Assembly: GCA_038087875.1 (NCBI GenBank)
Contig: CM075988.1
Span: 23,562,001 to 23,626,000, forward strand
Length of the DNA stretch: 64,000 nucleotides
Reading direction: 5' to 3'
DNA from: Malacoraja senta
Taxonomy: Eukaryota
Numbering within the stretch: position 1 is the stretch's first letter; each line of letters opens with the position of its first letter. The notes under the pieces are model-generated. The model did no database searches, was not told the DNA's origin, and saw nothing but the letters and a program-made list of their open reading frames with translations. Positions 36,278-44,317 of this stretch are shown one piece after another. The position numbers and the translations under genes are program-made.

Positions 36278-38071
36278 GTCTATTGTAGTTCATAGCTTAT
36301 GAGGTTGTAGTGTTTAATAGCCTGATGGCTGTGGTGAAGAAGCTGTTCCTGAACCTGGACGTTAAATCCATAGACTACAACTGAAACAATAAACAGCTTA
36401 TCACACCAAAAAACCCTCCACATCATACCATTTCTGGTTCCACCCTAACCCCAGTGCTTCCAATTTAAATTATTGTCTTCTGTCAATTAAATCTTGCAAT
36501 GACTGAACATCTACCATACCCAAGATTGACACAAAAAGCTGGAGTAACTCAGCGAGGTGACGTTTCGGGTCGAGACCTTTCTTCAGACTCAAATTCTGAA
36601 GAAGAGTCTTGAACCGAAACATCACCTATTCCTTTGGAGTCTGAAGAAGGGTCTCGACCCGACACATCACCTATTCATTTTCTCCAAAGATGCTGCCTGA
36701 CCTGCTGAGTTACTTCAGCCCTCTGGCCTATTTATGGTGTAAACCAGCATCTGCAGTTCCTTCGTCAACAACTACCATACCCATCTATCCGCTGACTACA
36801 ACCTCCTGTGTACTCTCCTCACTCTCCTCTTCATTCGTAGCAGAGCTTTTAGTCACTTTGGCTCATGCTCTGGAAATCCGATCTGAGATTCCTCCATTCT
36901 TGCTGAGTACTTTTTCGTGCTACATCTTTTTAATCCTCTTCCATAAATCTCATAAATTCCTCAAAATCTGTTTTGAAGAAAATCTATCTTACGTCAATAC
37001 TGATCAGCGAATTTATCTACAGACTTCTTAACTAGATGATAAGATACCAAGCAATGGAGTGAGCCACAATGTCATGAAGGAAACAACTTTGGTTTTCATT
37101 TCTGTTCAACTGCTGCCCGACTCACCCCTCTGGTGGTGCTCCATGTTCTTCATCATCTTCATCAGATTCTGTGTCGTCTGAATCTTCATCTTCCTCCTCA
37201 TCCTCATTTTCTACAAACCCCTGCTGCAGGGACTTTGAGCCCTTCTTTTTCTCCTGCTAAATATATAAATTCTGCACATTACGAAGAATAAATTACTCGG
37301 CTGATTACGTTGCTAAGTATTTAAGTTATACAGAAAATTGAGACAAACACAACTGTAGCCTCTCTGGAAACTCAAGAATTTGAGTTAAGCTGGCCGAGCT
37401 CCTCCTTATGTTTGGGGAGGAGGTGGCATAGGATCTTCTTTGTGCCAAGCCCACTAATGTTCCTCTACAGTAGCACATTATATTCTTAATAGATTCTACA
37501 CACCATGAAAAACAAAAATCTCTCCCTTTTCTTAGGATAGACTCAAAAAGCTGGAGTAACTTCAGACTCTATACACTGCTGACCCACCTTTTTCCACCGC
37601 TTGCTAATGTTCTACACTGGAGAAATTCAAATCTCATCTTATTTCAGCCTGATCATAACATAGATTTAACAACTGTTGCTTTTTGTTTACTCGTCTGAAA
37701 GTTAAGATTAAAATGGCCTATAAGTTGAACATGTTCCTAAAATGGCTGTAAATTTACAAACATCTTGATGCTGAATTTGGATCTGGATCTTCCCTGAGCA
37801 TCTTCATTTTTTAATTTCATGTCAATGTCCAGTGCCATCAAATGTGTAGAACTGATTGTGTACCAGAATAGTTTGCAAAAGCAATCTGTGCACAGATTTG
37901 AGCCCAGATAGTGTTATTTTACAATGGAGACATACATGCCACTGCATAATGTTTATGTGTAACTGCAGAATTAATGACAGTGAAATGATAATGTGCAATC
38001 ATGAATGTGTTTGTCACCTCTGATTTCTTACTGTTCTCCTCCTCGTACTCATCGCTGCTGTTATCTGCCAT
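25820..38071 (-). CDS. IFT46: Intraflagellar transport protein 46, 10 coding exons, 301 aa
   Basis: Exons 38018-38071, 37126-37253, 35821-35895, 34203-34296, 33488-33616, 31162-31280, 30942-31008, 30780-30840, 29320-29405 and 25820-25912 total 906 nt with all phases compatible. The peptide MADNSSDEYEEE...GAYDPADYEHLP...KPFIPDFIPSVGDIDAFLKVPRPDG...WMESISELHRSKPP...ILDIPVYKDRIQSLH is recognisably IFT46. Confidence 0.97.
27340..28737 (-). mobile_element. Second CR1 family (HER1-like) LINE, 5'-truncated, open RT frame
   Basis: ORF 27444-28793 has QHGFVPGRSCLTNL, GVPQGSVLGP and YADD. The 3' end has GGCCTGTTTCCGTGCTG, shared with the local V-SINE tails, and an (ATAACC)n tail. Confidence 0.92.
28738..28912. 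mobile_element. Half of a Harbinger-type MITE
   Basis: Ends in GTGGGACAGGCCCT|TTAA; the other TIR is not found. Confidence 0.55.
29320..29405 (-). CDS. IFT46: IFT46 exon
   Basis: AILDIPVYKDRIQSLHVLFTLHSEFKNSQ. Confidence 0.95.
29762..30083 (-). mobile_element. V-SINE (HE1-like)
   Basis: Reverse-complement copy. Confidence 0.8.
30780..30840 (-). CDS. IFT46: IFT46 exon
   Basis: VSLPTAETNCDLPQYIDMIC. Confidence 0.95.
30942..31008 (-). CDS. IFT46: IFT46 exon
   Basis: PMPDIDSLMQEWPPEFEELLGK. Confidence 0.95.
31162..31280 (-). CDS. IFT46: IFT46 exon
   Basis: QLKVKSLENVEKNPKALDNWMESISELHRSKPPANVHYTK; CAGCAG acceptor. Confidence 0.95.
33129..33320. mobile_element. Short Penelope-derived inverted-arm insertion
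   Basis: 15-bp TSD TTTGATTGCTGGGCT (33114-33128, 33321-33335). Confidence 0.8.
33488..33616 (-). CDS. IFT46: IFT46 exon
   Basis: VPRPDGKSDNLGLIPLDEPCAKQSDPTVLSLWLTENSKQHSVT. Confidence 0.95.
34203..34296 (-). CDS. IFT46: IFT46 exon
   Basis: YTPQSIELDHKLKPFIPDFIPSVGDIDAFLK. Confidence 0.95.
34633..35004. mobile_element. Penelope-derived inverted-arm insertion carrying a nested 167-bp insert
   Basis: 14-bp TSD AGCCACATATACAG (34619-34632, 35005-35018). Confidence 0.8.
35276..35672 (-). mobile_element. CR1 3' fragment
   Basis: ORF 35368-35631 RT C-terminus plus (ATAGACA)n tail. Confidence 0.85.
35821..35895 (-). CDS. IFT46: IFT46 exon
   Basis: AYDPADYEHLPTSTEIKELFQYITR. Confidence 0.95.
36241..36276. 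repeat. (AAT)n microsatellite within a Rex1-type tail
   Basis: 12 AAT units. Confidence 0.9.
37126..37253 (-). CDS. IFT46: IFT46 exon (acidic region)
   Basis: EKKKGSK...ENEDEEEDEDSDDTESDEDDEEHGAPPEG; TAGCAG acceptor. Confidence 0.92.
38018..38071 (-). CDS. IFT46: IFT46 first canonical coding exon (exon spans 38018-38106 including UTR)
   Basis: MADNSSDEYEEENSKKSE; acceptor ctcag| at 38106, donor |GTGACA. Confidence 0.9.
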
Positions 38072-40695
38072 GATTCTGGTTTGGGACCGGCTTATCCTGG
38101 GGCCAGCTGAGAGCAAACAGAAATACATATCAGAATCTTGAATTGCTGATAGACACAAAAAGCTGGAATAATTCAGCGGGACAGGAAGCATCTCTGGAGA
38201 GAAGGAATGGGGGACGTTTTGGGTCGAGACCCTTCTTCGTGAACTGCTGATTTATTTCTAACAAATGCATACCCACAGTAGTTTGGGGGATGGAGTTCCA
38301 GAATGTGGACCCATGATGAAGGACCAGTGATTTATTTCCAAATCAGAATGGTTTGTGACAAGGAGTGCAACTTACATGTGGTGGTGTTCCCATATCCCTG
38401 CTGCCCTTGTTTGACTTGATGATAGAGATCATGGGCTTGGTAGGCTGTTGCAGTAATCTGGACGAGTAGCTGCAGTACATTTTGTAGATAGTACCGAATG
38501 CAGTAACTGTTTGAGTTTAGTTTATTGTCACCTAAACCGAGGTACAGTGAAAAGCTTTTGTTGCGCACTGTGTAGTTGTGAAGGTGGGAATGAATGTTGT
38601 GGGTGGTTGGTGAGGTTCTCTTTCAACCTGCTTTGTCCTGGCTATTCAAGAGACTAAATTGTCCCTGCATACACTGAAAGGGAACAATGAAATTCTTACT
38701 TGCAGGCTTTTGGGTTTCTTGACAATTAATGGCACTGCATTCATTTAGATATGTGGAGAGTATTCCATCATAAACCTGACATATGGTTGCAGATAGTGAA
38801 AAGGCTTTGGAGTATCTGGAGGTAAAACACTCGACACAGGACATTCAGTCTCTGATCTACTCTTTGGCCCACCGAGTCCACGCCGACCAGTGATCGCCAC
38901 GTACACTAGCACTATCCTACACACTAGAGACAATTTGCAATTTTACCAAAACAATTAACCTACAAACCTGTGCGTCTTTGGAGTGTGGGAGGAAACTGGA
39001 GCACCTGGAGAAACCCCACATGGTCACATTGTAGCAGTGAATAAATCATTCAACACACATATCATGGATATCTGCCTTTGTGACCTCCTCAATGGCCATT
39101 TCTCACATCAATCACTGTTAGATGTATCATTTTATGTCACATAATACCCCTCATGTCACATATGGCCATACATATTTCCTAGTACGTGACACGATCTAGC
39201 CTTTTTGTCCTCCTTTACATATATACCCTTATATCTCAAGCTACCTGCACTTACCAGGCTGCCTTGGGGATGGGGTATAGATGCTTGCTACTTCTTCCGA
39301 ATCATTTACATCCAGACTTTCATCATATGGCTGGTTAGTAACAAGCTTTGTCTGAAAACAGATTTTAAAATGGCTTTAATGTAATGAATTGCATGGTTTC
39401 TTATGCTTAAGCAAATCATTTTGTGCTATATTTAACATAATAAACTTTTGGCTAAATGATTTAGGGAAATGGGAGTTGGAATTTAGTATTGGTATTTTAT
39501 TGTCATGTGTACCAAGATACAGTGAAAAGCTTTGTTTGATTGAAGAGAAGAATGAGGGGGGGACCTCATTGAAATGCAGAATAGTGAAAGACGTGGATAC
39601 AGTGGATGTGGAGAGGATGTTTCCACTAGTGGGAGAGTCTACGACTAGAGGTCATAGCCTCAGAATTAAAGGACATTCTTTTAGGAAGGAGATGAGGAGG
39701 AATTTCTTTAGTCAGAGGGTGATGAATCTGTAGAATTCTTTACCACGGTAGGCTGTGGAGGCCAAGTCAGTGGATATATTTAAGGCAGAGATAGATAATT
39801 GTAGATGGAGTCTATGGTGGGGAGACTGGTCTGTCGGTGGACTAAGCTACATCCACAACTCTCTGCAATTTATTACAGTCTTGGGCAGAGTTGTTCTCAG
39901 GCAAAGCTGTGATGCAATCCAATAGTATCCATTCTACGGTGTAGAGGTTGGTAAAAGTCGTTGGAAACATGCCAAGCTTCCCCAGTCTCCTGAGCAAGTA
40001 GAGGTGCTGGTGTGCTTTTTTGGCTAGAGCTTCAATGTGCTTGGCCCAAGATCAATTTGTTGGTGATATTTCCTGAATGCCATAGAAAGCATGTACTTAA
40101 GTGACAATGATCGTGTTTCTGTAATACCTGCACACCGGCAACGGCAAATTTTCTTTCATGACCATTGTCCTAAAAAGCTTCTTAACACAACACAATCTTT
40201 TCTGTTGGGACACCAGCACAGACCATAATATTATTAATCCCAATGTCCTTGGCCTATCTTCTGTCCAAAGCCAGCCTTTCATCTCACTGTGAGAAACAAG
40301 AGTAGGCAGATGCTGGAGTCTGGAGCAAAAGAAAATGCTGGAAAAAGTCTGTGAGTCATGCAGCATCTGTGGGGCAAAAGAAGAACAGCAGCTCATATCC
40401 ACCTGGGTAGTGTAGTTTAGTTTATTGTCATATATACCGAGGTACAGCTAAAAGCTTTTTGTTGCATGTTAACCAGTCAAAGCAGATTATACATCAATAC
40501 AAGCAAGCTGTCCACATAACACAGTTGTTGCCTGACCCGCCGAGTTCTTGAGGTCTGAAGAAGGGTTTCCGATCCAAAATGTCACCTGTCCTTTTTCCCC
40601 CAGAGATACTGCCTGACCCGCTGAGCTACTCCAGCGCTTTGTGTCTATCTTCGAGTTCCTCCAGTAGTTATTTATTGATCCATGTCGCTGTAAGC

Positions 40696-40773
40696 CAGGG
40701 GTCGGCAACCTTGTTCTGCAGACGGGCCAGGACACATGTCTGTCTGTGAGCGGATGGCGGGCCTCAACTATCA
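40696..40773 (+). mobile_element. hAT-like terminal fragment
   Basis: Starts CAGGGGTCGGCAACCT, typical of hAT/Charlie termini; partner end not found. Confidence 0.5.
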
Positions 40774-40958
40774 CATGAATCCCACCCCAATCCCGCTCCG
40801 GAAGGCAGGCATCAAATCACGTGTTCACATAGATCGTGCCCCTTCGAGGACACCACCCGGAGCACTGGCCCCTAGTTACGGGCGCTCACGGACATGGCGC
40901 ACCAATGGACCATTGCCTTGGCTCTGTCCTGAAGGTGGTGGCTCAAATACTCACTCAC

Positions 40959-41076
40959 TCATCCCCGGCCTATTGACAACCCCGACCCCGAGAGTGAAGC
41001 CCAGACACAGAAGGTGCGCGGCCGTGCCAGCGGCTTTGCGCAGGATGCAGTACAGCCAGAGCTCGGCGCTTGGCAC
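40959..41076 (-). pseudogene. CYB561D2: Orphan CYB561D2-like first coding exon copy
   Basis: VPSAELWLYCILRKAAGTAAHLLCLGFTLGVGVVNRPGM followed by phase-1 donor A|GTGAGT, compared with recalled CYB561D2 [31 protein letters not shown]. It begins at GTG right after an in-frame TGA and lies head-to-head with the NPRL2 exon. Confidence 0.75.
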
Positions 41077-41203
41077 TCAGCCGCGCACGGTACTTGGCCT
41101 CGCTCAGCGGTTCCGCCTTTGCGGCCGCCAGCGCAGTATTTCTTGCGTCACCGCGCCTGGGCGCCGCGGCTTCGGGAGGAGGAGCCCGGCCTCACGCAGG
41201 GCG
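41077..41203. promoter_or_regulatory. Duplicated bidirectional CpG promoter between the NPRL2-like and CYB561D2-like exons
   Basis: 127-bp GC/CpG-rich spacer between divergent coding starts, with CRE-like TGCGTCAC. Confidence 0.6.
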
Positions 41204-41275
41204 ATGGGCAGCAGGATTAAATGCGTCTTTTTCAGAGTGTTTCACCCGACCCTCGGTCCAAAAATTATCTTCCAG
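41204..41275 (+). pseudogene. NPRL2: Orphan NPRL2 exon-1 copy (GATOR1 subunit N-terminus)
   Basis: [24 protein letters not shown]|gtaccg matches the recalled NPRL2 start ([21 protein letters not shown]). No further NPRL2 exons were seen; it is followed by a Rex1-type RT fragment. Confidence 0.8.
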
Positions 41276-41307
41276 GTACCGGAGATGATGGAAGTCTGCG
41301 GGCCGGA

Positions 41308-41500
41308 TGCTGTAGTCTATAAACAACTGCCTGACGTAAGTCTTTTTATTGTCCAAGAGGTCCAGTGCGGAGTGGAGAGCCAGTGAGATCGCATCCTCCG
41401 TTGACCTGTTGTGACGGTAGGCAAACTGTAGTGGGTCGAGGTGCTTGTTGAGGTAGGAGTTGATAGCCACCATAACCAACCTCTCAAAGCACTTCATCAC
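41308..41500 (-). mobile_element. Rex1/Babar RT internal fragment
   Basis: MKCFERLV...[23 protein letters not shown]...[10 protein letters not shown]. Confidence 0.85.
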
Positions 41501-41512
41501 AGACACTCTGAG

Positions 41513-42546
41513 TAGGTATGTTACAATACTTACCTTCACCGGCGCTGTAATTCAGCCACTGGCCGTGTGCGTGATTTTGGCGCCTTTAAGGGGGAGGGGC
41601 GGGCTTAAAACACGGGTTTCTCCTACCTTGTCCTGAATTATATTTCGTTGGAGTACAAGCGTTTGTTGAAAAATCGTTACTAGGGGCGTTTTGTGAATTT
41701 TTTATTTTTATTATATCGACAATGTCAGCGCTGGAGTCACTTTAAAATCAGCTCCTGAAGCCGTCAACGCCGATAACGGGGACGGATTTCACGTACGGGA
41801 CAGGTAAACGAAAGTGGTTCATTTAAATGTATAAAGGTGCTTCTTAAGAAGCCTTTAATTCACATTTTTTCTTGCGAAACGGTGATTTTATTCCCCGAAC
41901 TAACGGCAGTATTTTTCATGCCAATACGGGGTTAAATTCACCGCAAATGAACGTTCCAAAAGATCGCGTTCCAGAAATCCTCACTCACAAGATGATTTAA
42001 ATGCCCATTAATTTACAGGTATTAAACATTCAATTCCTTCGATTTGGCCTGTAAATTCATGACAATGAGATTTAAAAATTATGTTATATTGTGAATTATT
42101 GTGTGAATGTTATTTGGACACTTGGGCTATTTAATAATGTTAATCTATTCTTAAGAAATTGATAGATGTTTAGATTTAGTAATTGAATTTTGTAATTAGC
42201 TACAATTAGGTAACTAACTAATTATATGCTTTAATTTCATGTCTTCTAAGTAAGATTGTTTCATATTTGTTTCAGAATGCTTCAATCTATAATAACTGAA
42301 AATTTCTTTCAGTTCTCTTAATTTTTAAGAAAGTTATGTGCTTTTAACTGTCCTCGATCACAGCTCAATGGGAAAGCAATAGGGAACAAGATGCTAATTT
42401 CCGAGTATGAAAATGGCCATAACCTTTTTAATACTGAAGATATGAAAGTGAATTAGGTGTCAAATTAAACTTCTTTTTATGCTTTATCTGATGGGATAAA
42501 TTGCAGACTTTATTTTTTAACATCTCAAAATTTTGTAACATTGCTA
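41513..42546. mobile_element. Non-autonomous TIR DNA transposon (about 1.03 kb)
   Basis: Imperfect TIRs TAGGTATGTTACAA / TTGTAACATTGCTA; flanking duplication CTCTGAG (7 bp) or ACTCTGAGT (9 bp); AT-rich interior with no long internal ORF. Confidence 0.8.
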
Positions 42547-42671
42547 CTCTGAGTTACAGTCCCTGAGTTACATACAGTCCCTGAGTTACACACAGTCCCT
42601 GAGTTGCACAGTCCCTAAGTTACACACAGTCCCTGAGTTACACACTGGCCCTTAGAGACAGTCCCTGAGTT
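42547..42671. repeat. 14-18-bp minisatellite (CCCTGAGTTACACACAGT)
   Basis: About 7-8 degenerate units; a related unit resumes at about 43230 after the CR1 insertion. Confidence 0.85.
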
Positions 42672-43227
42672 ATAGAAACATATAGAGAAACATAGAAAAT
42701 AGGTGCAGGAGTAGGCCATTCAACCTTTCGAGTCAGCACTGCCATTCAATATGATTCATGGCTGATCATCCAAAATCAGTTCCTGCCTTTCTCCCCATAT
42801 CCCTTGATTCCGTTAGCCCTAAGAGCTATATCTAACTCTCTCTTGAAAACATCCAGTGAATCCAGTCCACATTTTTAAGAAGGGGAGGTCATTTAAGACT
42901 GAGGTGAGAAAAAACTTTTTCAGCCAGAGAGTTGTGAATTTATGGAATTCCCTGCCACAGAGGGCAGTGGAGGCCAAGTCACTGGATGGGTTTAAGAGAG
43001 AGTTAGATAGAGCTCTAGGGGCTAGTGGAATCAAGGGATATGGGGAGAAGGCAGGCACGGGTTATTGATTGGGGATGATCAGCCATGATCACAATGAATG
43101 GCGGTGCTGGATTGAAGGGCCGAATAGCCTCCTCCTGCACCTATTGTCTATGCTTCTAATCGGCCTCCACTGTGGAAGAGAATTCCACAGATTCACAACT
43201 CTCTGGGTGAAAGCGTTTTTCCACATC
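42672..43227. mobile_element. Nested, oppositely oriented CR1 3' fragments
   Basis: A minus-strand tail (42672-42861, resuming 43159-43227) is interrupted by a plus-strand 3' fragment (about 42873-43158). Confidence 0.8.
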
Positions 43228-43239
43228 GAAGTTAGAGAC

Positions 43240-43570
43240 AGTCCCTGGGCCGGGCCGGGCCGGGCTACACCGGGCCAGGCTCGCTCCCGCTGCTGAGCCC
43301 CGGTGCCACTAAGGTCCAAGGTGCGGGACGAGATCTATAATCGATGGTTATGACCGCGGGGCGCCGCGTCCCCCCCAAACTAGGCCGCGTTGCCATGGTT
43401 ACCTTCGCTCCCTCAGAGTCCGACTCCGCCATGGGCGCCCCGCCGCTCACTGCGCCTGCGCCGGGTCCGCCCCGCCCAGCGCGGAGTGATCGCATGGACC
43501 GCGGGGGCGCAGCGCTCCGCCCCCTCCCGGTGGGGAACCGCGGTGCTGCGGCCGAAGGTGAGAGTCGGGC
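43240..43570 (-). promoter_or_regulatory. IFT46: CpG-island promoter and first exon of IFT46
   Basis: CpG-dense segment in an AT-rich background, with GC boxes (CCGCCC), NRF1-like TGCGCCTGCGC at 43451-43461 and a minus-strand donor AAG|GTAACC at 43403/43402. Confidence 0.75.
43389..43402. promoter_or_regulatory. RFX X-box (GTTGCCATGGTTAC)
   Basis: Near-palindromic match to the RFX X-box typical of ciliary-gene promoters, in the IFT46 CpG island. Confidence 0.75.
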
Positions 43571-44317
43571 CAGGCAGCATCTGTGGAGAGGTTTGCAGAG
43601 CTAATCCATTGTATCTCGGTACAATGGAGCTACCCACATTGTCCATGTTGCAATCAATAGCTACCTACATTGTTGCTGCAAAATCTTACAAAGGCAATGA
43701 AAAGAGAAGCAGACCATTGCAGATGTCCTCTCCCAGGCAAACATCACCAAAGCAGAAGCCCTAATTACACTGAGCTATTGAGCTGGCCAAGTTGCTTGTC
43801 AACAGACACCATCCCCGGCTTTGTCATGGGAAGGGATCAGCAGGTTGTCTGAGAGAAATATTTGAGGATGTGCTCAAGGTTTGCTTGAGAAAATGCAATA
43901 TCCCCCCTGAATCCTGAAAATCCCAAGCCCATTTCAAGGAAACTGGGTTTAGTATTGAACTTTTCAAGAATTAATAACTTCATTCGTGGTATTGCTTCAC
44001 TATTACGTTATTTAATTTCCTCATTGCACCGGACACTTGGTGTTCAGGATTGTTTTTGTCTTCAGTGAAGATGGACTCCTAAGTTTTGTTCAATCTTTTC
44101 TCTACCATTTATTTATTTCTCAGTTAAAATTCCCTTGCTTCTGTCTGTAAGGGACCTATTACCACTCGTGTGTCAGAAGGAACTGCAGATGCTGGTTTAA
44201 ACCAAAGCTGGAGTAACTCAGCGGGACAGGCAGCATCTCTGGACAGAAGGAATGGGTGACGTTTCGGGTCGAGACCCTTCTTCAGACTTCCCAATCCTTT
44301 TCCTTTTTACATACCTT

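Follow-up and report, generated by a model that had tools for sequence, protein, structure and literature searches.

A multicopy Pack-TIR family, probably of a Buster-type hAT transposon, carries NPRL2/CYB561D2 first exons in a skate genome

Capture of host gene sequence by terminal inverted repeat (TIR) transposons to high copy number is well known in plants, and in animals it has been described as rare and low-copy (PMC8277862). Four multicopy cases (1.4%) are given in the animal Pack-TIR survey, one example being Pack-hAT-N8_XT with three copies (Tan et al. 2021, PMC8277862). According to the same text the survey pipeline demanded a unique best hit; it therefore likely misses high-copy families, and part of the apparent rarity may reflect detection. 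The family described here resembles Pack-hAT-N8_XT (CAPSL 5' UTR), as portrayed there, in having hAT ends, host DNA inside from a GC-rich 5' gene region, a separate TIR-free donor on another chromosome, and distinct target site duplications (TSDs). It differs from that account in having about 1,000 copies, the coding exons of two genes, and a partner and intermediates in one genome. Plant Pack-MULEs are described as TIR elements with GC-rich host gene fragments, often multicopy (PMC8277862); they are alike in this and differ by superfamily and kingdom. The nearest analogue in the sources consulted is the bat Helitron HelibatN3, which amplified the NUBPL promoter, 5' UTR, exon 1, and part of intron 1 to about 1,000 copies (PMC4224331), and in both cases a promoter, a first exon, and an intron start were amplified in a vertebrate. 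HelibatN3, as described, is rolling-circle and took up a single gene, whereas the skate element is a hAT of the cut-and-paste class, has TIRs and 8-bp TSDs, and took up a head-to-head gene pair with two outward-facing splice donors. For hAT elements, a TIR length range of 5-27 bp is reported (PMC3517528), and the TSD consensus of the Buster family is given as nnnTAnnn (PMC3517528, PMC3499496). Buster hATs in these papers (TcBuster, SPIN, and the Mar MITE; PMC3499496, PMC3517528) share with the skate family the 8-bp nnnTAnnn TSD and the TIR start CAGGGG, and the partner transposase matches GTF2IRD2-like proteins and a Spin-doc zinc finger. The Mar MITE is described as an internal-deletion derivative, whereas the interior of the skate element has instead been replaced by host gene DNA.

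The stretch analyzed (the window) is 64,000 nucleotides of the Malacoraja senta genome (G000:C12:23562001-23626000), in which a transposon copy occupies 40696-41308 (Table 1). This copy is very probably a broken non-autonomous hAT with 490 bp of NPRL2/CYB561D2 cargo, captured once, spread by a partner transposase, and now decaying. Judged by sequence features, the family can be classed as a multicopy Pack-TIR of a probable Buster-type hAT: host DNA lies between both TIRs, the parent is without TIRs, the cargo is genomic, and the TSDs are distinct. The hAT assignment is based on the 8-bp TSD, the 16-bp TIR, and a partner encoding a hAT transposase, and the Buster label on TSD and TIR form together with homologue names.

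Table 1. Features of the transposon copy and its surroundings (positions in the window)
Feature	Position	Strand	Remarks
Presumed 8-bp target duplication, left half	40688..40695	+	Fits nnnTAnnn; 8-mer occurs once in window; right half lost
Terminal inverted repeat of hAT element, 16 bp	40696..40711	+	Both TIRs present in sister copies
Left transposon arm	40696..40772	+	88% identity to bases 1-73 of the 2,447-bp partner (L168:331-2777)
Tandem duplication at left capture junction	40773..40807	+	Arm end + donor start; probable boundary
Captured genomic segment	40808..41285	.	Homologous to donor locus G000:C4:64767427-64767916
CYB561D2 intron 1, first 151 bases	40808..40958	-	132/150 bases as in donor locus; GTGAGT splice donor at 40958
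Dead CYB561D2 coding exon 1	40959..41119	-	Start now AAG (41119-41117); frame shifted by 37-nt expansion
Spacer between the two start codons, 84 bp	41120..41203	.	Presumed to hold the bidirectional promoter plus 5' UTRs
NPRL2 coding exon 1 copy	41204..41275	+	ATG and CAG/GT splice donor intact; 7 base changes
NPRL2 intron 1, first 10 bases	41276..41285	+	Ends in AGA, the right-junction microhomology
Right transposon arm stub	41286..41308	+	Rest of arm and right TIR absent
LINE reverse-transcriptase fragment, internal	41309..41503	-	Abuts and truncates the element; outside the family
IFT46 first coding exon	38018..38106	-	ATG 38071; bounds from splice signals; downstream of copy in IFT46 direction
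Presumed IFT46 exon 1, 3' part	43403..43432	-	In own CpG island; probable intron 1 placement

A sequence-only reading of the window had proposed an orphan, genomic copy of the NPRL2/CYB561D2 head-to-head region, and both exons it named were recovered by protein searches (PDB, Pfam, and a named ray protein). The plus-strand NPRL2 exon 1 at 41204-41275 matched NPRL2 of the GATOR1 structures in the PDB (E 2e-6; aligned to human NPRL2 residues 4-26), and 65 of its 72 bases equal those of the real exon; the Pfam NPR2 match (E 4e-4) was under the cut-off. The minus-strand CYB561D2 piece, with its GTGAGT donor, shares 29 of 37 residues with the named ray CYB561D2. No additional exons of either gene had been noticed, and this agreed with the searches: CYB561D2 gave a single tblastn match in the window, and two NPRL2 exon peptides gave zero matches in the window plus 10 kb per side. 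The head-to-head pieces had been placed 127 bp apart, but the distance between the starts is 84 bp, against 125 bp in the donor locus, the homologue of the CYB561D2 start being 41119-41117. CYB561D2 exon 1 measures 161 nt here versus 124 nt in the donor locus, and the odd GTG/TGA seen where a start was expected arises from the 37-nt expansion within the exon. Coding decay had been suggested; it holds for the mutated CYB561D2 start and the frameshift, but the altered FFSEFH stretch was for the most part inherited (derived form in 9/93 classified copies, donor form in 5/93). A GC-rich short-repeat tract just past the CYB561D2 start (window 41070-41115) varies in nearly every copy, and copies L038, L039, and L040 show tandem expansion of a 31-bp intron unit. 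The bidirectional promoter role of 41120-41203 is suggested by the head-to-head layout.

The left border of the copy is the hAT TIR that had been noticed at 40696, and its left arm corresponds to the end that, in the full-length partner, lies downstream of the transposase gene. The reverse-transcriptase fragment on the other side is likewise present (Pfam RVT_1 E 6.7e-4, under the cut-off; contigs from four sequencing runs begin at 41309), but it is no designed border, as it replaces a right arm kept elsewhere in the family. The right arm and second TSD of this copy were not found elsewhere in the window. A separate element of about 1 kb, probably another DNA transposon, occupies window 41513-42544. 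Its inverted ends (13 bp, imperfect) are flanked on either side by a 9-bp direct repeat, and in L073 the arm is split by similar DNA.

Genome copies were searched by DNA similarity using 40900-41310 (1,261 first-look candidates, 40 of them scored) and counted by pattern matching. A CYB561D2 exon-1 25-mer, taken from the part retained in most copy classes, gave 1,003 genome matches at two mismatches, a 21-mer of the same exon gave 384 at one mismatch, and a left-arm pattern gave 1,201, with reversed-pattern controls of 0 in all three cases. The NPRL2 exon-1 pattern gave 30 matches (29 copies and the donor locus; reversed-pattern control 2). These counts are lower bounds, and some small-contig matches may be duplicated assembly. 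Among the first 30 exact arm matches on C1, a non-random sample, 21 contained donor sequence by BLAST, five were cargo-free siblings, and four were interrupted, in one case beyond a cargo-type junction. Deletion derivatives predominate: nine of the 21 cargo-bearing C1 copies retain spacer DNA, 11 only about 60-75 bp of the CYB561D2 exon, and one a scrap of intron. An abundant subfamily (L071, L076-L080, L082, L089, L092, L096) has only about 62-75 bp of the CYB561D2 exon left and holds a nested SINE-like piece, and its amplification postdates that insertion. Run contigs from three other organisms cover the element (four runs compared over 37950-43600, their contigs dominated by repeats), so the family is common to relatives. 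Literature searches, mostly at listing level, returned no description of the family, which may already be in a repeat library with its cargo unremarked.

For the analysis of element ends, 50 loci were reduced to 46 after dropping two without a core match, one duplicate, and the donor locus. Both 16-bp TIRs were present in 34/46 copies, and all 34 two-TIR copies had 8-bp TSDs within 2 mismatches (17 exact). The TSD consensus was nnnTAnnn, with the central T in 28/28 and the A in 26/28 of the best TSDs. Flanks were unrelated across copies (mean identity 0.28; three pair-sides >0.6). With about 1,000 relatives having paired TIRs and their own TSDs, the window copy is no orphan. Helitrons are not known to have TIRs or a TSD, and capture by a Helitron was rejected on the TIRs and 8-bp TSDs of the family.

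The donor locus (L006; C4:64767427-64767916) is a 490-bp segment without TIRs, in which both ATGs are intact and the reading is FFSEFH. The captured segment of the window copy is identical to it in 413/505 aligned columns (E 1e-138). On the minus strand, the final CYB561D2 exon is 6.5 kb away from the donor segment; on the plus strand, further NPRL2 exons follow the segment, and CYB561D2 of this genome is 95-98% identical to named skate CYB561D2. Since the cargo includes the start of each intron and the divergent exons of both genes, it is genomic and not retroposed, as the sequence-only reading had inferred. The donor 5' UTR (L006:1685-1712) has a short insertion missing from the aligned copies; its terminal motif also marks insertions in Pack copies L011, L075, L081, and L093, which suggests another small element or footprint. 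The last exons of cytochrome b561 at L031 and L032 (C5:39.90 and 39.95 Mb) are nearly identical and separated by 54 kb, either a tandem duplication or an assembly duplicate. The NCBI CYB561D2 models P0241 and P0249 (Leucoraja erinacea and Amblyraja radiata) are without the exon-1 residues that the models of other rays have, and these gaps in both skate models may have been caused by masking of this repeat family.

The full-length partner was found using as query a cargo-free sibling holding transposase remnants; a search via Pfam PF05699 had given 0/30 loci with family arms. It lies at C2:146038475-146040921 (L168:331-2777), is 2,447 bp long with TIRs and a TSD with 1 mismatch, and encodes an uninterrupted 598-aa transposase frame. 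With the donor locus, TIRs, TSDs, and an autonomous partner all located, the hAT capture that had been raised as a possibility is well founded. The Spin-doc zinc finger of the transposase was over the Pfam cut-off, and DUF4371 and Dimer_Tnp_hAT were under it; a PDB sequence search with the transposase gave no match. The top homologues are GTF2IRD2-like proteins (Amblyraja radiata 96%, Leucoraja erinacea 86%), several with PF05699. Motif patterns of hAT transposases were also found in the 598-aa frame. The intact 598-aa copy could be domesticated or recently active. Compared with one Pack copy, the partner shows 92% arm identity over 73 bp and 87% over 70 bp, which suggests that the partner transposase may have mobilized the Pack copies in trans. 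No partner-element sequence was found within 80 kb around the donor locus. A degraded, interrupted partner copy that holds no donor DNA (L181:438-5609; C4:64628938-64634109) lies 133 kb from it, the nearest one observed; the chance of a partner copy this near is about 1-2% given 40-151 partner candidates, an estimate made after the fact and a hint only.

Both capture junctions have 3 bp common to the donor locus and the partner, AGA at the right and ATC, then a short duplication, at the left; 3 bp is little for a microhomology, and the duplication makes the left junction hard to place. Among the 93 classified copies, the right arm was partner-type in five, taken as early intermediates, three of which have the donor-type NPRL2 allele. 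A duplicated right arm was combined with the donor NPRL2 allele in 2/93 and with the derived allele in 8/93, the window copy included, and 31/93 had lost 97 bp of the NPRL2 exon but kept its splice donor; the remainder are unclassified for these marks. The combinations are consistent with one capture event and stepwise change thereafter. A tree of 23 copies and the donor locus was a star with zero starred branches, the donor grouping weakly with two early-type copies, so the order and the single origin rest on the shared junctions and diagnostic indels. At non-CpG sites, copies diverged from the column majority by a median of 5.4%.

The most likely mechanism is template switching at a broken full-length element; gap-filling and FoSTeST models of capture are presented in PMC8277862. 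A break within such an element would have been repaired from the donor locus, likely once, with template switching at the 3-bp microhomologies of both junctions, and about 2.27 kb of transposase gene would have been replaced. The product, with both ends retained, would likely have been mobilized in trans, a related full-length element supplying the transposase. It may then have acquired the duplicated right arm, point changes, and deletions, the deleted forms amplifying most. One long-form copy would have inserted into IFT46 intron 1 and later lost its right end beside the LINE fragment, and it would now be in neutral decay as methylated DNA.

IFT46 is the host gene, on the minus strand (PF12317; exons read from sequence). 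The earlier placement of the copy within IFT46 stands, and intron 1 is the most likely position. The CpG island of IFT46 itself is at 43200-43600. In this island (43403-43560), a minus-strand ATG exon, a possible uORF, does not share the frame of the main IFT46 ATG, and a plus-strand splice donor at 43559 hints at a divergent transcript. No Pfam match to VPS11 was obtained among 124 of the plus-strand open frames of the window, a scan in which short exons could go undetected.

CpG decay was measured in the 52/93 copies that passed the cover filter, from which nine with >9% non-CpG divergence were then dropped. CpG transitions were 3.7x other C/G transitions in the 43 copies. By region, the excess was 3.3x in the spacer and 5.1x and 3.2x in the arms, and 30 SINE control copies showed 3.3x. 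CpG-decay positions numbered 16/118 in the window copy versus a family rate of 0.124, and 6/102 in the donor locus, which showed no CpG excess (0.040 vs 0.047). Decay of the window copy at the family rate means that the CpG richness was inherited and is decaying, and that its retention is not special. The CpGs had been noted as retained, a hint of function, but 13/58 are mutated in the window copy (rank 21/51 among sister copies), and retention as a sign of function was rejected since this copy loses CpGs at the family average. Decay among copies varies beyond binomial expectation (P 0.02), and a few copies may be protected. The CYB561D2 splice donor survives in 42/52 copies, and the parental ATG-to-donor phase is kept in three; together with the uneven decay and the intact donor and IFT46-frame ATG of the window copy, this tells against wholly neutral decay. 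It is doubtful that promoter function drove the amplification, the cargo being cut down to a short CYB561D2 exon piece in 11 of the 21 cargo-bearing C1 copies. A rather unlikely possibility is that the hAT dispersed hundreds of bidirectional CpG-island promoters with two outward splice donors across skate genomes, some of which start neighbour-gene transcripts; the IFT46 copy would be one candidate, by itself an improbable one.

The copy in the IFT46 intron is, from its sequence, most likely a dead member of the family. It could instead have been exapted as a second IFT46 promoter, with the CYB561D2-like exon spliced to the IFT46 first coding exon. The copy is on the IFT46 strand, 2.85 kb upstream of the acceptor, with the GTGAGT donor intact; it is a long form with the entire spacer; and the sole minus-strand ATG in 41203-40959 (at 40962) is in the IFT46 frame and would add 12 residues. 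This ATG, however, is a single C-to-T change at a CpG, the frame match is a 1-in-3 chance, and neither the family-average CpG loss nor a donor that survives in most copies is special. IFT46 already has a CpG island, and the 40959-38106 joint was absent among the 15 joints listed (a further 2,139 were recorded), from runs of other organisms. Exaptation is accordingly improbable. A one-off segmental or repair-derived duplication beside a hAT end would suit the window copy by itself, which is without a right TIR and second TSD, but with about 1,000 relatives sharing its arm-cargo junctions it is hardly credible. That the window is the real NPRL2/CYB561D2 locus or a misassembly, as the intact NPRL2 ATG and both splice donors might suggest, is likewise extremely improbable, because the true locus with its downstream exons is on C4 and the copy is 7-12% different from it at aligned bases and has family-specific changes.

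The finding is thus the transposon family, its scale unusual for a Pack-TIR, and the IFT46 copy is secondary. It parallels the promoter capture of the bat Helitron in a different transposon class. In practical terms, repeat masking would likely conceal real first exons. The donor locus, a partner with an intact frame, early intermediates, and about 1,000 descendants coexist in one genome, so both the capture mechanism and the fate of the transplanted promoter are directly testable.
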